A stretch of 64,000 nt of DNA from an uncultured Clostridia bacterium (GCA_945929845.1 CAMEON010000004.1:708-64707), one strand, 5' to 3'; shown: positions 20,558 through 62,588, counted from the stretch's first letter. The notes: generated by a model not told the origin, from the sequence alone. Made by a program: numbers and translations.

Positions 20558-23479
20558 TTACAGCTCCCGGATGTCTTCAAACAGGCCGGACGCACGGAGG
20601 GCGTCCTGACCGCCCACGGTAGCGTTGACTCCGGCCTCCCGGCTGTTCAGCGTCCGCACCGTGGCGGCGAAGGCGGCAAAGTCCTCACCGGTGGTGTGCA
20701 GAATGGCTTCCATGTCGGCGGTCACATCGGCGGCATTCCGGCCATTCTCCCAGCGGGACAGGGCGGCTTCGCCCTTGTCCATGGGACTCTGGGGGGCGAA
20801 GTAGGGGGCCAGACTGCTGACAATGAGACTGCCCAGCTCCTCCTCCCCGGGGATATTGGCATCCAGCCAGTCAGGCAGGTTGTCATATACGGCGTAGGTG
20901 TCGGCCACCCGGGGATCCCGGTAGGAGGCCAGCGCCAGAAGACCGTAGGGCATGACCTGGGCGAAGGCTCCGTAGGCACCGCCCTTGGCTCGGATCTCGT
21001 CCCAGAAGTATCGGGTGCCAAGGTAAGCACAGACCACCCGCATCTTCGGGGAGTAGGCGGCATCGGCTTCCGCCAGACTGTACACCCGGGCGCAGTAGTT
21101 GACCTCGCCGGGGATGCTCACGCCCTTGGCGGCCTTGCCGGCCAGTGTGCGGACAGCGGGTGCCATCTGTGTACCATCCCCCAGGAACAGCCCGGCCAGG
21201 GCACCCTGCCAGGCGGCATAGGCGGCCTCGCTTCCGATGAGGAAGGCCACCGGCCTGACCGTGCGGAACAGCACGCTGCGGACACGCTCCAGTCCGGCGA
21301 TCAGGGTATCTGCCTCCCCGTCGAAACGGTCGGCCAGGGCGGTCATGCGGCGGTAGGCGGACACGCCCTTCACCTGATCCCGGATCACGCCGCAGGCGGA
21401 CAGGGAAGCCTCGGCGATACCCTCGGCGGTGGCGTGTCCCCCGCCGATCAGGCGGCTCTTGAGTCCGGCGGTGTTGGAGAAGAGACGGCGCAGGATGGTG
21501 CGGTCAAAGACAGGGGCGGCTATGTAATCGCCCAGCAGAGCCACCGCTTCTGCCAGCCGCTCCTCCGGCGCATTGACGGTCAGGCGCAGGTAGGAGGCGG
21601 TACTGTCAGCACTCAGCCCTCTGACACCCACATCAATGGAGGCATACAGTACGGCGTGCAGAGCTACCCGACGGCCGGTCAGAGTCGGCACATCCTGCCC
21701 ATCGACAGGCAGGTCAAACAGGGCATCCTTCAGGCAACGGACATAGAACAGATCCCCGGTGTCCAGCCCGGACAGGTCAAAGAGCAGGGAAGCGGCGGCA
21801 ATGCCGTTGGTGTCAGCCGGGAAGTACAGGGAGAGAAGCTCCTTGCCGTTTACCGTTATGGTATGCGTCTCCACATCCTTATATTCAGCATGGGGATCAA
21901 TATCGGCGGGGGTCAGATGAGGAATGGAGGCTTCGGCTTCGGGGGAGTCGGGGGATGTCAGGTACTCTTGGAAGGCCGCCATGTGAGCCTCCAGTGCCTC
22001 GTAGGCACCGGGGGTGGCGTGGCGTTTGTCCGATTCCTTGGCCAGCCAGGCATCCATGCGTTCCCGCTTCTCCTGGGAGACGGTGCGGGAGGGGACGCAT
22101 CGGGTCAGTGCCCAGTGGTCGCTGTGGAGAATGTACCGCCGGATCAGCTTGTCAAAATACTGCGGATCCTGGGAGAAGGCCTGGCGGAGGGCGGCCAGGT
22201 CATCCGGCGTGGCGGCCTCGCCCCGCTGGACATGGGTGCGGAACAGGAATTCCATGATGCGGAAGCCGCTATCCACGGAGAGGGCCGCCCGGCGGCAGTC
22301 GGTCTCGTGGTTATCCAGAAGGTCGGAGAGGCGGGCGGTATCCAGACCCTTGTCTACCAGGTCTGTCAGGGTGTCCGTCACCACCTGGCGGAAGGCTTCT
22401 GCCTGCTCCGGCTGGGTCTTGCTCAAGGTCAGGTATACGAAGGGCTGGCGGACGGAGCTCTCGCAGGCCATGGAGAAGTCCTGACCGATACCGGCATCCA
22501 ACACCGCCTTGGACAGGGGAGACTCGGTGGTCTCTGCCAGGTAGCGGGAGAGGATGGAGAAGGCCAGTGCTTCCTCCGTCCGGGCACCGTCGCCCAGCAC
22601 GCAGGCCAGCATCAGGTGGGTGTTGTCCGCCGTATCCTCGTTGTCCCCGACCTGGTAGTAGGCTATGCCGTCGGGGCTGACCACCGGGGATTGCAGAGGA
22701 GCCGGTTCCGGGCGGGGGTATCTGGGCGGCTCGTGGGCGGAGAGGACATCATTGATCTGAGCCAGCTCCCGGTCAAGACCCAGTCTGCCGGACAGGTAGA
22801 AGATGGCGTTATCCACACCGTAGAAGCGCCGGTATGTCTCCTGGAACTGCTCGTAGGTCAGCGTAGGGATGGCGGCAGGGTCTCCGCCGGAATTGAAGCG
22901 GATGAACAGATCCGGGTACAGCTGCTTGAGAATCTGCAAGTACATGATCTCATAGGGCTGGTTGTCGTGCCCCTGCATTTCGTTGAACACCACGCCGGAA
23001 CAACGCAGGCCGCCCTGGCCGTCCGGCTCCAGGTGCCAGGCTTCCTTCTCAAAGATCCGCCGGTCGGAGAGGAGCAGAGGGTGGAACACGGCATCCAGGT
23101 AGACCGTCATCATGTTCATGAAGTCCTGCTCATTGGTGGAAATGAAGTAGTACAGCGTCTTGTCCTCATAGGTCATGGCGTTCAGATCCACGGCCATGGA
23201 GGTCTTCATCAGGTTGACGAAAGGCTCCTTGAGGCGGTAGGACTCCGACCCATCCAGCGTGGAGTGCTCAATGATGTGGAATACGCCGGTGTCATTCTCC
23301 GGCAGGGTACGGAAGCCCACGCTGAACACCATCTGTCCGTCGTCCCGGTCTGAGTAGTACAGGGTGGCACCGGTGGCCTCGTGGGTCAGCTTCCAATAGT
23401 TGGCGTTCATGGTGGGTATCTCGTGTACTCCCTCCACCCGGAAGCCTTGAATCTTTTCTCCGATTTTCCATGCAGGCAT
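20558..23479 (-). CDS. M16 (insulinase/PreP-like) zinc metallopeptidase
   Basis: The inverted zincin motif HIIEHSTLDGS (HxxEH) lies near the N-terminus. The protein is about 970 aa. GAAGGAGG precedes the ATG. Confidence 0.85.
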   Translation of the reverse strand: MPAWKIGEKIQGFRVEGVHEIPTMNANYWKLTHEATGATLYYSDRDDGQMVFSVGFRTLPENDTGVFHIIEHSTLDGSESYRLKEPFVNLMKTSMAVDLNAMTYEDKTLYYFISTNEQDFMNMMTVYLDAVFHPLLLSDRRIFEKEAWHLEPDGQGGLRCSGVVFNEMQGHDNQPYEIMYLQILKQLYPDLFIRFNSGGDPAAIPTLTYEQFQETYRRFYGVDNAIFYLSGRLGLDRELAQINDVLSAHEPPRYPRPEPAPLQSPVVSPDGIAYYQVGDNEDTADNTHLMLACVLGDGARTEEALAFSILSRYLAETTESPLSKAVLDAGIGQDFSMACESSVRQPFVYLTLSKTQPEQAEAFRQVVTDTLTDLVDKGLDTARLSDLLDNHETDCRRAALSVDSGFRIMEFLFRTHVQRGEAATPDDLAALRQAFSQDPQYFDKLIRRYILHSDHWALTRCVPSRTVSQEKRERMDAWLAKESDKRHATPGAYEALEAHMAAFQEYLTSPDSPEAEASIPHLTPADIDPHAEYKDVETHTITVNGKELLSLYFPADTNGIAAASLLFDLSGLDTGDLFYVRCLKDALFDLPVDGQDVPTLTGRRVALHAVLYASIDVGVRGLSADSTASYLRLTVNAPEERLAEAVALLGDYIAAPVFDRTILRRLFSNTAGLKSRLIGGGHATAEGIAEASLSACGVIRDQVKGVSAYRRMTALADRFDGEADTLIAGLERVRSVLFRTVRPVAFLIGSEAAYAAWQGALAGLFLGDGTQMAPAVRTLAGKAAKGVSIPGEVNYCARVYSLAEADAAYSPKMRVVCAYLGTRYFWDEIRAKGGAYGAFAQVMPYGLLALASYRDPRVADTYAVYDNLPDWLDANIPGEEELGSLIVSSLAPYFAPQSPMDKGEAALSRWENGRNAADVTADMEAILHTTGEDFAAFAATVRTLNSREAGVNATVGGQDALRASGLFEDIREL

Positions 23480-26547: not shown

Positions 26548-27525
26548 ATGAAGCCTTTTGTAGAGATCCGGATGCTGGGGGAGGCCAGGAAGGCCGCCCG
26601 TCCGGCTCACCGCCTGATCATAGAGCTTTTGATCTTCCTCTTGCTCATGCTGGTGGCATCCATGGTGGAGAGCGTGGTCATTGCCCCCTGTGAGGTGGGC
26701 ATCATCCTCTCGGATGAATCCTTCCTGGAGGCAGTCGGGAGCGGAAACCTTCTGTCTCTGCCGGATGTCGTGTCGGATCTGCTGAGCCGTCTGCCGGACT
26801 GGTTCATGCTGGTGCAACTGTTCGCCACCGCCGGGATGATCGCCACGGTGCTGGTCTACTGCCTGAAAATAGAAAAGCGGAACATGGCTTCCCTGGGCCT
26901 CCACCGCCGGGGGGCGGTGGGGGAGTACTTAGTCGGCCTTGCCCTGGGGCTTGTCCTGTTCGCCGGGGCGGTGGGCATTTGCTGCCTGACCGGTCAGATG
27001 ACCCTGACCCTCCGAAGCCAGCCGCCGGTGGGTATGATCCTGTGCTTCTTTGTGGCCTACCTGGTGCAGGGCCTCAGTGAGGAACTGCTCTGCCGGGGGT
27101 ATCTGATGGTATCCCTGAGCCGTGGCTACCCCCTGTGGGCCTGCGTTCTGACCAATGCCCTGCTGTTCGCCGTCCTCCACCTGGGCAACCCCGGCATGAC
27201 CGTGCTGGCCTTCATCAACCTGACGCTTTTCGGGGTGCTGGCATCGTTGTACACCCTGCGCCGGGGCAGTCTGTGGGGCATTGCCGCCCTGCATTCCGCC
27301 TGGAACTTTGCCCAGGGGAACCTGTTTGGCCTGTCCGTCAGCGGAACCGCCGCCACACCCTCCCTCTTTGCCGCCTCCACAACCTCCGGGCGGGTGGCCA
27401 ACCTGATCCATGGCGGCAATTTTGGGCCGGAGGGCGGACTGGCGGTGACGCTGATACTGGCGGCGGCACTCCTTCTTATCCTGTGGGTGCCGACCAAGAA
27501 GTCGGAGGCGGTGGCTGTCTTGTAA
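26548..27525 (+). CDS. CPBP-family (CAAX/Abi) glutamic-type intramembrane protease
   Basis: Start is residue 9 of ORF 26524..27525, after AAGGAG. The motifs are SEELLCRGYL, LLFAVLHLGN and LHSAWNF. Confidence 0.85.
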   Translation: MKPFVEIRMLGEARKAARPAHRLIIELLIFLLLMLVASMVESVVIAPCEVGIILSDESFLEAVGSGNLLSLPDVVSDLLSRLPDWFMLVQLFATAGMIATVLVYCLKIEKRNMASLGLHRRGAVGEYLVGLALGLVLFAGAVGICCLTGQMTLTLRSQPPVGMILCFFVAYLVQGLSEELLCRGYLMVSLSRGYPLWACVLTNALLFAVLHLGNPGMTVLAFINLTLFGVLASLYTLRRGSLWGIAALHSAWNFAQGNLFGLSVSGTAATPSLFAASTTSGRVANLIHGGNFGPEGGLAVTLILAAALLLILWVPTKKSEAVAVL

Positions 27526-36277: not shown

Positions 36278-36856
36278 TCAGCGGCTGGCGAAATGATCCT
36301 TCACCAGGCGGACACTGCGGCCAATAGCCACAGCGGCCACGCACTTGAACAGGTCGAAGGGGATGAAGGGGAACACGCAGGCGGACAGAGCGGGAACCAC
36401 AGCCATGTCCATCACGGCGCAGAACTGAATGGTACCGCCAATGTAGCAAACGGCCACACCGATGATGCAGGCGACAATCTCCCACACATAGCCCCACACC
36501 TTGTGCTGGCTGGCCTTGGGGAAAGCCATACGGAGCAGACCCACCAGAGGTGCTACCAGGATGTAGGACCACAGGTAGCCGCCGGTGGGGCCGACCAGCA
36601 CCTGGAAGCCGCCATGCCATCCGCTGAACACAGGCACGCCAACAGCACCCAGAACCAGGTAGAGGGCCACGGACTGGACACTGTCCCGGGGGTCAAGCAC
36701 AACGCCTGCCAGCAGGACGGCAAAGAGTCCCAGGGAGATGGGCACCGTGCCGATGGGCACGGACATAGGTGCCAGCACGCAGATCAGGGCGGCAAAAATG
36801 GCGTTGAATACCATTTGCCGCAGGAGGCGGTGCTTGGAACGGACAGCAGTACTCAT
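36278..36856 (-). CDS. bioY: biotin transporter BioY
   Basis: Start is residue 33 of ORF 36278..36952. The GPTGGYLWSY and FPFIPFDLFK motifs are present. Confidence 0.85.
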   Translation of the reverse strand: MSTAVRSKHRLLRQMVFNAIFAALICVLAPMSVPIGTVPISLGLFAVLLAGVVLDPRDSVQSVALYLVLGAVGVPVFSGWHGGFQVLVGPTGGYLWSYILVAPLVGLLRMAFPKASQHKVWGYVWEIVACIIGVAVCYIGGTIQFCAVMDMAVVPALSACVFPFIPFDLFKCVAAVAIGRSVRLVKDHFASR

Positions 36857-55370: not shown

Positions 55371-55414
55371 ACTTGTGGATCGAAAGATTACACAATAATT
55401 TAGGAGGCATATTC

Positions 55415-56233
55415 ATGAAGTATTTAAGAATCGTTGTTATGTGTTTGATTTGTGCCCTGTTTTGCAGTGTCTTTCTGTCCTGCACCCCGACTCAGAATTC
55501 AAACGCCCCTTCCACGGCGAAGGATGTGTTGGATGGGGAACGCAGTATTTCCCAATCCCATGATTTGAGCGAGATCGCATACATATGGCGGATGAGCAAA
55601 TCTTTCGCCCGGACATCCATAGTTGTCCCCCCCTCCATGAGCATTGGAACAGAAGTACAAAATCCGGCTCTGATCTACTATGAGAATCCGAATCATGTTA
55701 ACTGGCAGTATGAGTATCCCGTCATGGATTCAGACAGTTATTGGTTTTTCCAGTACAGCTATATGCTATGGTCTGACTGCCGGGTGGGCGTGTATCGTAC
55801 CAGCTTCAGCGAAAGCGAAAACCATGGAGAAACGGGGGAGGATGTGTACTATGTCCACCTGATCTTTGAGAAAAAGGCCCCCATCAGCACGGAGGAATGT
55901 CTGCCGGAGACATGGTGGTATTTTACCGGAAAGTACATCTACACCTCTGAAACCTCCGCCACCGCCGACACCTCCCTCCTGAAACCCGGTGCTTCGGTGC
56001 GCTCCCTCTTGGACAGCTTCCCGGAGCTGGGGCTGTACTGCAAGGTGGACGGACGGTTCCCCTTCACGGTCAGTGGCGATGTGTACGCCGGCCCCGCCGT
56101 GCTCATGGTCAACGAGGGCTTCTTCCTCATCACCACCGAGCTGTCAGCGGACGGCACGGATGTGCTGATCAAGGAGGTCACAAAGCAGGACACGCTGACT
56201 TACCAAGACCTGTGCGCCTTGTTTGGCGCATGA
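55415..56233 (+). CDS. lipoprotein A, unknown function
   Basis: Start is residue 15 of ORF 55373..56233, after AGGAGG. The signal peptide MKYLRIVVMCLICALFCSVFLSC has a lipobox. The C-terminal ~100 aa are nearly identical to those of the next gene. Confidence 0.75.
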   Translation: MKYLRIVVMCLICALFCSVFLSCTPTQNSNAPSTAKDVLDGERSISQSHDLSEIAYIWRMSKSFARTSIVVPPSMSIGTEVQNPALIYYENPNHVNWQYEYPVMDSDSYWFFQYSYMLWSDCRVGVYRTSFSESENHGETGEDVYYVHLIFEKKAPISTEECLPETWWYFTGKYIYTSETSATADTSLLKPGASVRSLLDSFPELGLYCKVDGRFPFTVSGDVYAGPAVLMVNEGFFLITTELSADGTDVLIKEVTKQDTLTYQDLCALFGA

Positions 56234-56258
56234 CCGCACAACGAGAGGAGAAAACGAT

Positions 56259-57035
56259 ATGAGGACAATGCAAAAGATTGCTATCCTGTTACTGCTCGCC
56301 CTTTCTTTGCTGGCTGTGAATGCCTGCCAGTGGGGCACAGTGCCTAGTCAGGAGAGCGGGACGATGACCGAAAATGTGAATCCGGAGACGGAGGCACAAA
56401 CCACACGCAGTCAGATGATTTTGGATGCGCAGAATCAGGCGGAAGTGATGGATGAACTGACGGTGCCAACGCTTGTATTTATGTACTCTCTGACTGCGCA
56501 TATGGATCAGCCTGTATATATACCGCAAATGTCTCGCCACCAGCCCTTGTGTAAGCCCAAAGGATGGGATTCATACATGATGGACGAGGAGCATACTGTT
56601 TGCGTGCTACAGACGAAGGATGCGGAAGGTAAGGCCTACAACCTGCACCTGATATACGGCCCCAACAACCCGAACGATCCGTTGTCTCCGTACGCCACAG
56701 AGAATGAGGATGAGAACTGGGTACTTTCCGGAAAGTATCTATTCACCTCCTCCGTCTCCGCCACCGCCGACACAACGCTTCTGAAGCCAGGCGTCTCGGT
56801 GCGCTCTCTCTTGGACAGCTTCCCGGAGCTGGGGCTATACTGCAAGGTGGATGACCGGTTCCCCTTCCAGGTCAGCGGTGATGTGTACGCCGGCCCCGCC
56901 GTGCTCATGGTCAACGAGGGCTTCTTCCTCATCACCACCGAACTGTCGGAGGACGGCACGGATGTGCTGATCAAGGAGGTCACGAAGCAGGACACGCTGA
57001 CTTACCAAGACCTGTGTGGGCTGTACGGCTCGTAA
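56259..57035 (+). CDS. lipoprotein B (paralog of A)
   Basis: Start is residue 13 of ORF 56223..57035, after GAGAGGAG. The signal peptide MRTMQKIAILLLLALSLLAVNAC has a lipobox. The N-terminal half is divergent and the C-terminal domain is conserved. Confidence 0.75.
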   Translation: MRTMQKIAILLLLALSLLAVNACQWGTVPSQESGTMTENVNPETEAQTTRSQMILDAQNQAEVMDELTVPTLVFMYSLTAHMDQPVYIPQMSRHQPLCKPKGWDSYMMDEEHTVCVLQTKDAEGKAYNLHLIYGPNNPNDPLSPYATENEDENWVLSGKYLFTSSVSATADTTLLKPGVSVRSLLDSFPELGLYCKVDDRFPFQVSGDVYAGPAVLMVNEGFFLITTELSEDGTDVLIKEVTKQDTLTYQDLCGLYGS

Positions 57036-58087: not shown

Positions 58088-58343
58088 CATGCAGGACATG
58101 ACTGCGGGCGTTGAACTTCAGCCATAACCGATCATTCCCCCCGCTGTCCCGGAAACGGAACGGCGGGGGCTTTCTGTCCCGCCCGGTCTGCGCCTGGGGC
58201 TGGTAGAATAACTTCACATTCGCTTGAAGAATGTTTACAATCTGTTGGTTGTATTTGGACGGTATTTGCGGTATGATATAAGGAGAGAGTCCGGCCTGAT
58301 GCCAAAAACGATGGATGCCGTGAGAAAGGAGACCCGTGACTGT

Positions 58344-59306
58344 ATGTTCGGTTATGTGAGAACCTGGCCCCCGGAGCTACGGGGGCGGGAGCAGGAATAC
58401 TATAGGGGCGTGTACTGCGGGCTTTGCCGTGCCCAGGGCAAGTGTACCGGTACCTGCTCACGGGCCATGCTGAATTATGATATGACCTTCATGGCACTGG
58501 TGCGCCTGGCTCTGACCGGAGAGACCCCTGTCTTTACCCGGCGGCGTTGCGTGGTGCATCCTGTCCATTGGCGGGTCATGGCAGAGCCGAATGCCTCGCT
58601 GACCATGACAGCCCTTTGCAGTGCCCTCCTGACCTACCATAAGGTAGCCGATGACAAGGCGGACGAGACTGGCCTTCGCTTTATCCGGGCGGAGGCGGTC
58701 ACGCCCGTGGTAGCCGGGGCACGCCGCCGGGCTATGAGGCGGATGGCGGACGGACAGAAGCCGCAGGGTGAGGGAATCACACCGGACGGGACGGCGTTGG
58801 ATAAACTGGTCGCCGATTGTATGAAGGCACTGGCCGAGACCGAGAGCAAACGGCCCCCGTCGGTGGATCAGCCCGCCGAGCTGTTCGGGGTGATGATGGG
58901 GGATATGCTTGCCTTCGGGCTGGAGGGAGATGCCGCTCGGTTGGCTCGGGACATCGGCCGTCACACAGGCAGGTGGGTGTACATCCTGGACGCCGCCGAC
59001 GACTACGAGGAGGATGTCCGCCGGAAGCGGTATAACCCCTATGTCTGCCTGTACGGGGAGGGAATGACTACCCTGCCGGAGGAGAGGAAACAGGAGATAC
59101 GGACGGCCCTCATCGGGGAGCTGGTGGAAATAGAGGCCGCTTTTGACCTGATGGAGATCCCCGACCGGAACCTGGACGGCGTGTTGCGGAACATCCTGTA
59201 CGAGGGGATGCCCCGGGTGGCAGACCGTGTCCTGTGGGGGGAGCCGGAAAAGCATGACCCGTCCGGGGCGGGTGAACCGTCCGGTGGGAAAACCTCCGGT
59301 GCGTGA
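58344..59306 (+). CDS. DUF5685 family protein
   Basis: Start is residue 41 of ORF 58224..59306, after AAAGGAGA. MFGYVRTWPPELRGREQEYYRGVYCGLCRAQGKCTGTCSRAMLNYDMTF matches my recollection of DUF5685. Confidence 0.7.
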   Translation: MFGYVRTWPPELRGREQEYYRGVYCGLCRAQGKCTGTCSRAMLNYDMTFMALVRLALTGETPVFTRRRCVVHPVHWRVMAEPNASLTMTALCSALLTYHKVADDKADETGLRFIRAEAVTPVVAGARRRAMRRMADGQKPQGEGITPDGTALDKLVADCMKALAETESKRPPSVDQPAELFGVMMGDMLAFGLEGDAARLARDIGRHTGRWVYILDAADDYEEDVRRKRYNPYVCLYGEGMTTLPEERKQEIRTALIGELVEIEAAFDLMEIPDRNLDGVLRNILYEGMPRVADRVLWGEPEKHDPSGAGEPSGGKTSGA

Positions 59307-59339
59307 AGTGAAATTGCCAAGGAAAGGTATGGAACATAT

Positions 59340-60008
59340 ATGAAGGATCCGTATCAGGTGTTGGGCGTGTCCCCAACGGCTACCGATGAGGAGATCAAGG
59401 CCGCCTACCGGAATCTGGCCCGGAAGTACCATCCGGACAAGTACCGTGACAGCGACCTGGCCGACATGGCCGAGGAGAAGATGAAGGAGATCAACCAAGC
59501 CTACGACGAGATCAAGAAGATGCGGGCCGGTGGAGCGACGGGGAACCGGGGGCAGGGAAGTGCCGGCTATGGCTACGCCGGACAGAGCGGCGGCTATTCC
59601 CAGGGCTACACCGGGGAGGACTGGCAGAAGTACGCAAACGGCGGCTACTCCGGCCCGGAGGTGTACTACTGCGTCCGCCAGTTGATCAACGCCGGACGGA
59701 TACGGGAGGCCGAGGCGGTTCTCCAGGCTGTCGCCGAGGGAGACCGTGGCGCAGAATGGAATTTCCTCATGGGATGCGTGGCTCTGCGCCGCAGGTACTA
59801 TGTGGATGCCCAGCAGTTTTTTGATACTGCCTGCGGCATGGATCCGGGGAATCAGGAGTACCGGGCCGCCCAGGCACGCCTGCGGGAGAGAACCGGGAGC
59901 TTCGGTGGAGCCGGTGTCACGGACAACGATGGCTGCTCCCCCTGCTCTCTCTGCATGGGGTTGGCTTGCCTGGATTGTTGCTGTGATATGCGGCACGGCC
60001 ACTGCTGA
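59340..60008 (+). CDS. J-domain protein with a Cys-cluster C-terminus
   Basis: [33 protein letters not shown] contains the HPD motif. The last 25 aa, [25 protein letters not shown], contain 9 Cys. Confidence 0.85.
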
Positions 60009-60019
60009 CGGAGGCACCC

Positions 60020-60709
60020 ATGGAACCGAACAGAAAGGGGGAAATCCCCCCGACCCGCCGGTCGCCGGAGGGGGATAACCACAACTCGCCGGACAACTCC
60101 CCCGCCGCCGGGCGACAGACTCCGGGGGGAGGGAGACGGAGCCGCCGCTCCCATACCACCTACCGCATGGCTGTTTCGGCCATATTCTGCGCCCTGGGCG
60201 TGGTGGTGCTGGGGTTGGGAGCCTTGGTGGAGGTCATCGACATGACCGCCGCCGCCCTGGCCGCCCTGTTGTTTCTGCCCATCCTGTACCGCTACGGCAA
60301 TGGGTACGCCCTGCTTTGCTGGGGGGTGACGGCGATCCTTGGCGTGATGCTCATGCCCCAGAACCTGGCCTCCTGGCTGTACCTCTGCCTGTTGGGCTAC
60401 TACCCGGTGCTGAAACAGCGGCTGGATCGTCTGCCCCGGCTTCTGGCCGTCCTCTCCAAGCTGGCCCTGGTGCTGGTGGCGCTGGGCTTCTACCTGTTGC
60501 TGTTCTGGCTGATCATGATGAACGGGGAGGGAACCCTTGCGGAGATCTTTGTCACCGGCTTTGGCGAGGGGGAGGGAAGCACCTGGATGGCCTGGATCCT
60601 TGTGGGGCTCTGTATCATGACCTTCTTCATATTCGACCTGCTGATAGACAAGCTGTCTGTCCTGTACCGCCTCCGGTGGCGCAAGCGGGTGGAAAAGTGG
60701 CTGAAATAA
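60020..60709 (+). CDS. membrane protein with a disordered basic N-terminus, unknown function
   Basis: GGAGG lies 6 nt upstream. The first ~50 aa are Pro/Arg/Gly-rich and are followed by about 5 TM segments. Confidence 0.6.
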   Translation: MEPNRKGEIPPTRRSPEGDNHNSPDNSPAAGRQTPGGGRRSRRSHTTYRMAVSAIFCALGVVVLGLGALVEVIDMTAAALAALLFLPILYRYGNGYALLCWGVTAILGVMLMPQNLASWLYLCLLGYYPVLKQRLDRLPRLLAVLSKLALVLVALGFYLLLFWLIMMNGEGTLAEIFVTGFGEGEGSTWMAWILVGLCIMTFFIFDLLIDKLSVLYRLRWRKRVEKWLK

Positions 60710-60716
60710 AAAAGGA

Positions 60717-60750
60717 ACCGTGCGGAAACTGTCTCCCGCACGGTCTTTTT
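60717..60750. terminator. bidirectional terminator between the membrane gene and cotJC
   Basis: ACCGTGCGG-aaactgtctc-CCGCACGGT has AAAAA on the left and TTTTT on the right. Confidence 0.75.
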
Positions 60751-61411: not shown

Positions 61412-62230
61412 TTACTTGTTGGCCCGGATGTCCCAGGGGTACGGCTCGTTGACCCAATCCCACTGGGTGCAGCTCCTGTTCCCACGGAAGGTCAGGGGGC
61501 CGATCTCTGCTTCATACTTTTCTGCGGCGACCCGGCGCTGTTCCAGCAGACGGTGGTACAGCTCCAGGGCCTGGCAGTCATCACAGTAGGCATCCAGGTA
61601 CAGGGTCACTTCAAACAGGGCGAAGTCCAGTGCCTGTATGGTGTCCAGCAAGGACTCCCCGTTGCAACCCTCCTGTTCTCTGCCACAACCACAGCTTCTT
61701 TCCCTTGCGGAACGGCCGTTGTCGTTGTCTCTGCCACAGCCACAGCTTCTCTCGCTTGCGGAACGGTCATTGTCATCATAGCTGTTGCCGTTTCGTCCGG
61801 CGCAACAGTTACCCAGCCCCGTCCGGGGCATACCATATCCATTGAGACAGCAGGCACCAAAGCGGGATACCGATCCTACGCCGCCGGTCGGCCCCATCCG
61901 GCCCACCCCATTGGGGAAGCCATACACCGGGCCACGGTTGCGGTCGTTGTCTCGGCCACTGTTGCATCCGCATCTGCGGTTTTCGGAGTGCTCTCCCTCC
62001 CGGCTGTTGCCGCATCTGTTATCCCGGCATTGTCTCATGCTACAGTCGTCTCTGCCCCTGCGGTCATCGCCGTCTCTCCGAACCTGTCCGTACCTGTTTT
62101 CCATGTCACTCCGGTTCCGGTCTGCATAGCGCAAACGGTCAGTGTCCTCACGGCGAGCGGTGTTGCGATCCGTGTCGGATCCGTCCAGGAGCTGTCCGTT
62201 ACAGCTCCGTCTCACAGTTTCATCAAGCAT
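61412..62230 (-). CDS. cotJB: spore coat protein CotJB with a ~195-aa Arg/Asp/Asn/Gly/Cys-rich N-terminal extension
   Basis: The C-terminal 80 aa, LLDTIQALDFALFEVTLYLDAYCDDCQALELYHRLLEQRRVAAEKYEAEIGPLTF, form the CotJB domain. I place the start at residue 35 of ORF 61412..62332, 20 nt after the cotJA stop. Confidence 0.7.
   Translation of the reverse strand: MLDETVRRSCNGQLLDGSDTDRNTARREDTDRLRYADRNRSDMENRYGQVRRDGDDRRGRDDCSMRQCRDNRCGNSREGEHSENRRCGCNSGRDNDRNRGPVYGFPNGVGRMGPTGGVGSVSRFGACCLNGYGMPRTGLGNCCAGRNGNSYDDNDRSASERSCGCGRDNDNGRSARERSCGCGREQEGCNGESLLDTIQALDFALFEVTLYLDAYCDDCQALELYHRLLEQRRVAAEKYEAEIGPLTFRGNRSCTQWDWVNEPYPWDIRANK
61680..61779. repeat. tandem ~50-bp repeat inside the cotJB extension
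   Basis: CTGCCACAACCACAGCTTCTTTCCCTTGCGGAACGGCCGTTGTCGTTGTCT is followed by CTGCCACAGCCACAGCTTCTCTCGCTTGCGGAACGGTCATTGTCATCAT. They encode ...RSCGCGRDND... twice. Confidence 0.8.
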
Positions 62231-62252
62231 AACTGTATCACCTCTGCCTTTC

Positions 62253-62588
62253 TCAGCGGCTTCTGTTGCCACAGCCGCAACCACAGCCACTGCGCCCACG
62301 CCGTTCCTCGCCGCACCGGGAGCCACAGCCACCGGTGTTCCGTCCGCCGTATGCCGCCTCTAGGGGCAGATCCAGCTCACAGAACATAGTCCCCCGGTGC
62401 AGTGCTGTCCGGGGGTCGTACAGTCCACGGAAGCTCTGCATGGGAGCGTATGCCATGGCGAGAGGATACTCATATATTCCCCAGTGTTCCCGCTGGCACG
62501 CCTGGGGGCAGGGCTGGTGACATCCGCAGGAACCGTCATTCTGCGATTCTCTGGCGGCGTACATCAGACCGCCTTGTCTGTTTTCCAT
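62253..62588 (-). CDS. cotJA: spore coat-associated protein CotJA with a Gly/Cys/Arg-rich tail
   Basis: PLAMAYAPMQSFRGLYDPRTALHRGTMFCELDLP is the CotJA core. AAAGGAGGAACAA precedes the ATG. The tail reads GGCGSRCGEERRGRSGCGCGCGNRSR. Confidence 0.8.
   Translation of the reverse strand: MENRQGGLMYAARESQNDGSCGCHQPCPQACQREHWGIYEYPLAMAYAPMQSFRGLYDPRTALHRGTMFCELDLPLEAAYGGRNTGGCGSRCGEERRGRSGCGCGCGNRSR

Follow-up and report, generated by a model that had tools for sequence, protein, structure and literature searches.

In a 64,000-nucleotide (nt) stretch of DNA from an uncultured Clostridia bacterium (GCA_945929845.1 CAMEON010000004.1:708-64707; hereafter the window), a gene for a protein of the DUF5685 family is followed on the same strand by genes for a J-domain protein with a Cys-rich C-terminal tail and for a small membrane protein. 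We found that the linkage between DUF5685 and the Cys-rich tail is close to obligate, and that modelling places DUF5685, as a strongly diverged member, in the class-I isoprenoid-synthase fold. Our best reading, to which we commit ourselves only tentatively, is that DUF5685 uses a prenyl diphosphate to modify the Cys-rich tail, which would anchor a DnaK co-chaperone at the membrane; the module may thus be an undescribed route of lipid-modifying or anchoring a bacterial chaperone.

Linkage of DUF5685 to a Cys-rich tail

The three genes are separated by gaps of 33 nt (59307-59339) and 11 nt (60009-60019), the sizes given in a preliminary description of the locus, and all three open reading frames are on the + strand. 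The triad is not a product of chance, since it recurs in about 130 independent loci; one operon encoding a membrane-associated module is the best explanation of its arrangement. Among 80 loci taken from Clostridia assemblies that carry a name (Oscillospiraceae, Ruminococcus, Lachnospiraceae, Merdimmobilis hominis or Tepidibacter formicigenes), the order DUF5685, J protein, membrane protein was found in essentially every locus with room for it. The J/tail gene directly followed DUF5685 in 28 of 29 same-order loci, and a phylum-wide draw gave adjacency of the tail gene in 26 of 28; overall, 132 of the 138 DUF5685 loci have the tail gene beside them, the remaining six being four without room, one with the gene 4 kb away and one without a tail gene. 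In the clear adjacency exception (L028, G031:C157), DUF5685 lies at 26573-27391 (+), and the TPR/Cys-tail and membrane genes are about 4.4 kb off on the opposite strand (21508-22194). DUF5685 genes often overlap their partner genes or are translationally coupled with them.

Absence follows the same pattern. All 7 DUF5685-negative genomes among 41 relatives were also without the TPR-plus-tail protein. In a phylum sample of 401 genomes (50 DUF5685-positive, 351 negative), matches to a TPR-plus-tail profile (A3) were bimodal: full-length matches (E up to 1.6e-18) occurred in 37 genomes, all of them DUF5685-positive (37/50 versus 0/351), and the weak matches covered the TPR part only. The preliminary description had proposed that DUF5685 is linked to a Cys-tailed J protein and a membrane protein, and had named co-occurrence statistics as the check; the counts of adjacency and the empty set of negative genomes bear this out.

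Variant loci take the module apart. The J-domain is lost in some (L153 and L155-L157 have no HPD), and in L160 and L166 a 123-residue TPR-plus-tail protein without a J-domain is still followed by a membrane protein. The Cys-rich tail is fused to DUF5685 itself in L024, from the same genus as the window, and in L162/L176, where the fusion is a 376-residue protein with 18 Cys. Because the J-domain can be lost and the tail can be fused to the enzyme, the constant pairing is that of the DUF5685 domain with the Cys-rich tail rather than with the J-domain, and we count this in favour of tail modification.

Two divergent contexts add further genes. In L162/L176 four overlapping genes encode the DUF5685-Cys-tail fusion, a 161-residue protein, a polyprenyl synthase (PF00348, 3e-49) and a Peptidase_A24-like membrane protein (2.9e-6); one of these operons (L176:8553-11485, genome G195) sits between hypF-like and hypE/hypD-like genes, assigned by eye only. 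A second layout is conserved in 8 genomes of three genera and two families (L168-L175; genomes G442, G441, G394, G440, G348, G300, G420 and G324), including every DUF5685 locus sampled in family f85. Here one strand carries, in order, an Hsp70 paralogue (511 residues; PF00012, 1e-140), a J-like protein of 220-239 residues, a second Hsp70 paralogue (510 residues), a polyprenyl synthase and a membrane protein, and a divergent DUF5685 gene and a gene for a 157-217-residue protein are convergent with this set. The J-like protein has an HPD J-like segment at its end that Pfam does not confirm as a J-domain; the synthase, which ends ...ESWFWxP, matches a local IspA-type HMM in 8 of 8 cases (1e-34 to 1e-42), and its L161 copy matches PF00348 (4e-42). 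The two divergent contexts show independent ties of DUF5685 to a dedicated prenyl-diphosphate supply and to the Hsp70 system. A reading of the module as a defence system was dropped, the PADLOC defence library matching none of the proteins encoded in either the canonical or the Hsp70-type module.

Fold and conserved residues of DUF5685 and its partners

The DUF5685 protein matches Pfam PF18937 (202.6 bits, E=1e-59; residues 1-291, profile positions 1-268 of 272; gathering threshold 26.7 bits) and no NCBIfam family, and a search of the whole genome returned the same single copy. The family is large (3,697 clusters at 50% identity, E up to 1e-3; HMMER, 1.84 billion representatives), roughly one genome in eight of the phylum sample having it, yet obscure: in the literature searched, DUF5685 occurs only as a name in one domain list, PF18937 is absent and there is no functional description, as the preliminary description had noted. 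An N-terminal MFGY that is invariant in homologues places the start of the gene at the ATG at 58344.

Across 60 diverse family members, down to 30% identity, G3, Y24, C25, G26, C28, L43, D46, C69, D103, D107, E167, D216, D220, D224 and N231 are invariant, and H72, D175, Y213 and P232 are conserved in at least 90%. These positions redraw the N-terminal cluster that had been described as CxxC...CxxxC. Its four members are C25, C28, C34 and C38; the C25/C28 part is invariant family-wide, but the C34/C38 part ('CTGTC') is conserved within the genus only. In the structural model, C69 and H72 are carried by a beta-hairpin with strands at 64-68 and 76-80, and on their pattern of conservation C25, C28, C69 and H72 are likely to be a metal site, for Zn or a three-Cys Fe-S cluster. 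The two Asp-rich motifs reported earlier, ADDKAD at residues 102-107 and DDYEED at residues 219-224, are present in the sequence; both are genuine family features, the first kept as D103-D-x-x-D107 and the second as D216-x3-D220-x3-D224, not as DDYEED as such.

The AlphaFold2 model of the protein (pLDDT 93, pTM 0.90) is an all-alpha bundle with one beta-hairpin (64-80). Its best 50 Foldseek matches in the PDB are all trans-prenyl diphosphate synthases, MoeN5 or Ord1 (probability 1.00, TM 0.41-0.55, identity 9-15%, E 2e-3 to 2e-2); they include GGPPS, FPPS and octaprenyl-, hexaprenyl- and heptaprenyl-diphosphate synthases, MoeN5 and Ord1 being non-canonical prenyltransferases. The isoprenoid-synthase-like fold suspected in the preliminary description, which had named a Foldseek search as its check, is therefore supported, if by weak matches (TM about 0.5). 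That description had also listed what would tell against it, namely a fold unlike the synthases, Asp motifs not conserved in homologues and unconserved linkage; we found none of these.

Sequence comparison with canonical enzymes does not reveal the relationship. A global hhalign of DUF5685 with local IspA-type synthases found nothing; the best local path, short of significance by itself, is colinear and sets D103DxxD107 on the first Asp-rich motif (FARM) and D216/D220 on D1/D5 of the second (SARM). The residue 3 before D216 is Tyr213, where isoprenyl diphosphate synthases of the trans type (trans-IDS) and ComQ-type enzymes have Gln. DUF5685 has neither a match to the PF00348 HMM nor the signatures of the isopentenyl diphosphate (IPP) site, that is, a GKxxR-type region and FQ before DDxxD. 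Lacking these signatures and the FQ/Gln before SARM, DUF5685, if an enzyme, would not be a chain-elongating synthase; with its two invariant Asp-rich motifs kept, it is predicted most likely to bind a prenyl diphosphate, such as farnesyl or geranylgeranyl diphosphate (FPP or GGPP), and Mg2+, and the missing IPP-site signatures point to a transferase acting on a non-IPP acceptor.

The second protein of the operon has the canonical HPD and Gly/Tyr-rich linker recognised earlier, in a J-domain that matches PF00226 (3e-18) and PDB J-domains (down to 1e-12). Its PDB sequence matches are confined to the J-domain, as are its matches to NCBIfam DnaJ equivalogs, which are far below their cut-offs; after the linker come weak TPR matches (residues 111-186) and the tail. 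Having an HPD J-domain, and no DnaJ-type G/F region, CxxCxGxG zinc finger or C-terminal client-binding domains, it belongs to class C of the J proteins. The tail had been counted as a 9-Cys cluster, but the 25 residues then quoted contain 8 Cys. The family consensus is C-x2-C-x2-C-x4-C-x-D-C-C-C-E-C-x-G-G-D-L-I-x-C-C, replaced in some lineages by a more hydrophobic variant, LCxGLCxxxLCCxFC. The 127 adjacent homologues have a median of 10 Cys among their 30 C-terminal residues, and 118 of them keep HPD; partner tails have 5-12 Cys and no conserved Trp.

Two observations concern the tails of relatives. Selenocysteine was considered for tail matches of three genomes, which have an in-frame TGA, and rejected as unlikely: the codons look like a plain tandem stop, TGATGA, after ...CCPFC (L137:889-897, also G331 and G422), which the genome search had read through as though they aligned with the consensus terminal -CC and which is followed by the ribosome-binding site of the next gene about 10 nt on and its start about 23 nt on. 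In six loci from the same genus (L009, L010, L014, L022, L023 and L097), an extra TPR-like paralogue of 157-228 residues is encoded between DUF5685 and the J gene; these paralogues have a denser Cys/Asp tail of their own (e.g. ...CCDCDGDGSCCDGPDGCCDCCDCSDGCN) and no J-domain.

The third protein falls below every Pfam threshold and matches no Pfam or NCBIfam family, and its 47 database homologues are all unnamed and without a Pfam domain. In its AlphaFold2 model (pLDDT 87), a basic and disordered N-terminal segment precedes about 6 transmembrane helices, and the only meaningful Foldseek matches in the PDB, the rest being noise, are to TmRibU, the riboflavin S component of the Thermotoga energy-coupling factor (ECF) transporter (E 0.03-0.12, TMt 0.46-0.56, probability 0.97-1.0). 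PF12822 is matched weakly by 2 of 36 homologues (up to 2e-4). Alignment by hhalign of the family profile with single S components of the same genome, which has one EcfT and several S components, was colinear (best P=5e-4, probability 32%); the best partner lies in the window at about 36326-36820 (-) and is itself a weak S-component candidate (PF12822, 28 bits, below cut-off). Transmembrane helix 1 carries A54-x3-A58; AxxxA is a docking motif of S components. An S-component-like fold seems probable for this protein. The membrane gene adjoins most loci with an acidic tail, and is absent or elsewhere, in some genomes on another contig, in some lineages that keep DUF5685 and the tail protein; where there was at least 750 nt of room, it was present in 80 of 91 acidic-tail loci versus 7 of 16 other-tail loci, a loose trend that we did not use as evidence.

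Table 1 Features of the DUF5685 operon and its borders, in window coordinates
Feature	Position	Strand	Basis or remark
Sigma-70-like promoter candidate, TTCACA-17-TACAAT	58213-58241	+	10/12 consensus positions; upstream of operon
DUF5685 gene (P0001, 320 aa), predicted class-I isoprenoid-synthase-fold enzyme	58344-59306	+	Pfam PF18937, AlphaFold2 model, Foldseek
Codons C25, C28 ... C69, H72: conserved CCCH cluster, ties helix 1 to beta-hairpin	58416-58559	+	Conservation and model
First Asp-rich motif, D103-D-K-A-D107 (DDxxD)	58650-58664	+	C-terminal end of helix 84-107; D103, D107 invariant
Second Asp-rich motif, D216-A-A-D-D220-Y-E-E-D224	58989-59015	+	End of helix 195-219; D216, D220, D224 invariant
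J-domain / Gly-Tyr linker / TPR-like / Cys-tail protein gene (P0002, 222 aa)	59340-60008	+	PF00226, weak TPR matches
HPD tripeptide (residues 31-33) of J-domain, Hsp70-stimulating motif	59430-59438	+	Sequence
Cys-rich C-terminal tail, 8 Cys in 25 residues	59931-60005	+	Sequence
Small polytopic membrane protein gene (P0003, 229 aa), probably ECF S-component-like	60020-60709	+	AlphaFold2 model, Foldseek, hhalign
GC-rich hairpin between an A-run and a T-run: intrinsic terminator working in both directions, for this operon and for convergent cotJC	60716-60745	.	Sequence

Proposed mechanism and its rivals

We propose the following steps. DUF5685 would bind FPP or GGPP together with Mg2+ through its two Asp-rich motifs and act as a transferase to a non-IPP acceptor; that acceptor would be the Cys-rich tail of the protein encoded by the adjacent gene, one or more of whose thiols would be S-prenylated. 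The lipidated tail might then keep the TPR/J protein bound to the membrane, either beside or within the ECF-S-component-like protein, where its HPD J-domain could recruit and activate DnaK. The central step, modification of the tail by DUF5685, is put forward as a hypothesis that draws indirect backing from the tail fusions and from the loci with a dedicated polyprenyl synthase. Taken further, the proposal is that gut Clostridia and some other anaerobes possess an endogenous bacterial system of protein Cys-prenylation in which DUF5685 lipidates the Cys string of a dedicated J protein; we regard this as doubtful though not fanciful, and are as guarded about its corollaries, that the enzyme would be unrelated to CaaX prenyltransferases and that the product would be a lipid-anchored Hsp70 co-chaperone docked at an S-component-like protein.

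Several observations weigh against tail prenylation, beginning with the assignment of the enzyme. Foldseek E-values for the DUF5685 model reach only 2e-3 to 2e-2, a sequence-profile search of the family against the PDB returned noise only (E at least 0.11), PF00348 picks up a single canonical synthase in each relative genome but DUF5685 in none, and the local hhalign path, for which 20 local IspA-type synthases were used, does not reach significance by itself (P=0.028). The characterised trans-IDS-like peptide prenyltransferases all act on Trp and have Gln before SARM, where DUF5685 has Tyr. On the side of the acceptor, loci of the Hsp70/polyprenyl-synthase type have no Cys-rich tail, and the tail therefore cannot be a universal substrate; a tail fused to the enzyme would mean single-turnover self-modification; the rigid Cys/Asp/Glu/Gly spacing of the tail and its CxxCxxC...C start are more like a metal or Fe-S mini-domain than a lipidation site; and the frequent translational coupling of the genes suggests a stoichiometric complex.

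A second explanation we consider nearly as likely as prenylation, although by itself still rather doubtful. DUF5685 would here be an isoprenoid enzyme acting on a small molecule or membrane lipid and the TPR/J protein its dedicated co-chaperone or assembly factor, with a Cys tail that binds Zn or Fe-S or bridges to the CCCH site, and with the membrane protein supplying or holding the substrate. It has analogues by function in the plant OR protein, which has a DnaJ-like Cys-rich zinc finger and stabilises phytoene synthase, and in HscB/HscA with IscU. The strict Cys/acidic spacing of the tail with its ferredoxin-like CxxCxxC-x4-C start, the anaerobic life of the hosts, the invariant C25/C28/C69(/H72) site in DUF5685, the gene overlap and coupling that suggest a complex, and the resemblance of the membrane protein to a substrate-capturing S component all speak for it, as do the divergent loci, where Hsp70, a J-like protein and a polyprenyl synthase are retained without the Cys tail, so that the chaperone link outlives the tail. 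It does not account for the tail being the partner that varies least, for losses of the J-domain or for fusions of the tail to the enzyme in some loci; moreover, no metal-binding family matched the tail in a Pfam search, and the tail is unlike the CxxCxGxG zinc finger of DnaJ.

An unlikely third possibility starts from the membrane protein, which with a shared EcfAA'T would import a small molecule that DUF5685 prenylates or otherwise converts, leaving the J protein as regulator or tether. It agrees with RibU being the only meaningful fold match of the membrane protein, with A54-x3-A58 in transmembrane helix 1, a motif with a docking role in S components, and with the single EcfT and several S components of the genome. 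Against it, the resemblance to S components is weak (E 0.03; PF12822 in 2/36 homologues), several lineages with DUF5685 and the tail protein have the membrane gene elsewhere or not at all, Rfam finds no riboswitch upstream of the operon, and the Cys tail is given no role.

More improbable still is that DUF5685 is catalytically inert and serves as a scaffold that binds lipid or prenyl groups, or as a regulatory subunit comparable to the small non-catalytic ones in heteromeric prenyl diphosphate synthases. Its Foldseek matches do include heterodimeric hexaprenyl and heptaprenyl synthases, and in divergent loci a real polyprenyl synthase adjoins it; yet non-catalytic subunits have lost their Asp-rich motifs, whereas five aspartates, E167 and N231 are invariant across DUF5685, and canonical loci, this one included, have no synthase partner nearby.

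The preliminary description had also suggested that the J protein is sent to the forespore membrane by a sporulation module tied to the neighbouring cotJ operon, and this we consider most improbable: cotJC/B/A do lie directly downstream, in convergent orientation, and most hosts are endospore formers, but the phyletic pattern largely refutes the tie and the sole promoter match resembles a sigma-70 site. The conserved neighbours of the 80 loci do not include cotJ; beyond the triad they are gmk (15), yicC (11), a remA-like gene (9) and rpoZ (5), and a close relative has nadE and ksgA downstream of the triad in its place. SpoIVA is found in 327 of the 401 genomes (82%) and in 47 of the 50 with DUF5685, which against that background is no enrichment; 280 SpoIVA-positive genomes have no DUF5685, and three genomes (G084, G185 and G255) have DUF5685 without SpoIVA. 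Among 14 control genomes, DUF5685 occurred in non-sporulating Thermotoga maritima only, Bacillus subtilis being negative. The adjacency of cotJ in the window is incidental.

If the tail is prenylated after all, DUF5685 would be the first Cys-directed member of the peptide prenyltransferases with a prenyl-synthase fold and a new biocatalyst for protein lipidation, and bacteria would have, in this module, their first endogenous system of lipid-anchored J proteins, a convergent parallel to the cysteine-string protein and to farnesylated Ydj1 with a bearing on the recruitment of DnaK to anaerobe membranes; the literature searched held nothing on bacterial Cys-prenylated J proteins. If the tail binds metal instead, the J protein would be a new Hsp70 co-chaperone dedicated to an isoprenoid enzyme. 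On both readings, strict co-occurrence makes DUF5685 and the tail protein a clean two-protein system open to testing, as is the link to polyprenyl synthases and Hsp70 paralogues. The co-occurrence across 401 genomes, the S-component-like third protein, the context of a polyprenyl synthase with two Hsp70s and the rejection of the sporulation tie are new here.

The surroundings of the operon add few signals. The promoter listed in Table 1 is a candidate only, because chance alone would give 0.8 sites of this kind in the region; GGAGG stands 6 nt ahead of the ATG of the membrane gene at 60020, and the hairpin beyond this gene bounds the triad and parts it from the convergent cotJC-cotJB-cotJA. 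An Rfam scan around the operon (E up to 1) found no riboswitch or other known RNA, and on 16 related loci it found tRNAs and one Gut-1 RNA only. No PF00348 polyprenyl synthase was found in the assembly of the window itself, which is 93% complete, and 12 of 12 same-genus genomes sampled have exactly one; the absence is probably a gap in the assembly. Upstream, 55373-57035 (+) holds two tandem lipoprotein-like paralogues with a near-identical C-terminal module of about 100 residues (...TSSVSATADTTLLKPGVSVRSLLDSFPELGLYCKVD...) and differing N-terminal halves. Downstream, the cotJB open reading frame (61412-62332, -) is 306 residues long, with a long low-complexity N-terminal extension rich in Arg, Asp, Asn, Gly and Cys, and is overlapped by that of cotJA (62253-62588, -).

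Comparison with known systems

There is precedent for trans-IDS-like enzymes that prenylate the peptide products of adjacent genes (PMC13290415, PMC10853753); those described modify Trp of short peptides only and have a conserved Gln just upstream of SARM (PMC13290415). ComQ/ComX, PalQ/PalX and the P domain of ChrPC share with DUF5685 the class-I fold and two Asp-rich motifs, and the related Ord1 is among its Foldseek matches. The genes for ComQ and PalQ adjoin those for their acceptor polypeptides, as DUF5685 adjoins that of its presumed acceptor (132/138 loci), and a gene for prenyl-diphosphate supply is linked in some DUF5685 loci as it is in trans-IDS-like peptide prenyltransferase systems. 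Unlike ComQ, PalQ and ChrPC, DUF5685 is silent to PF00348, has no sequence match in the PDB, has Tyr213 in place of Gln and carries the extra CCCH hairpin; and whereas ComQ and PalQ act on short Trp peptides, the candidate acceptor here is the Cys-rich tail of a J protein of about 220 residues. These systems, and lipidated J proteins likewise, are analogues of the proposed module by function, not by homology.

The closest structural matches of DUF5685 are the trans-isoprenyl diphosphate synthases themselves (TM 0.41-0.55). As in these, DDxxD ends a long helix, a second Asp motif follows about 113 residues on and basic residues come after the first motif; in contrast to them, identity is 9-15%, there is no IPP-site motif and no FQ before SARM, and the second motif is DxxxDxxxD, not DDxxD.

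Palmitoylated DNAJC5 and the farnesylated CaaX proteins Ydj1/DNAJA combine an N-terminal HPD J-domain with a Cys-rich or Cys-terminal segment that serves as lipid anchor, a layout similar to that of our J protein, in which lipidation is putative. The J-domain alone is homologous: the DNAJC5 match (4e-8) covers residues 5-56 only, with no homology beyond the J-domain, and the Cys string is central in DNAJC5 but C-terminal here. The enzymes that modify DNAJC5 and Ydj1, DHHC and alpha/beta FTase, have folds unrelated to that of DUF5685, and the tail described here has fixed acidic and Gly positions. The terminal -CC of the family tail resembles Rab geranylgeranylation motifs.

Class-C J proteins (HscB with HscA/IscU, DjlB/DjlC with HscC, and DjlA) join a J-domain to a specialised targeting module, as does the protein described here, and divergent DUF5685 loci bring Hsp70 paralogues of their own, as dedicated class-C systems do. 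Unlike HscB and the Djl proteins, this J protein is paired with an isoprenoid-fold enzyme and has a Cys string, its HscB match outside the J-domain being weak and below cut-off. The membrane protein, for its part, differs from ECF S components such as RibU (PF12822) in having no link to ecfA/ecfT and a long basic disordered N-terminus, and is like them in being a small six-helix membrane protein of similar size with AxxxA in transmembrane helix 1.

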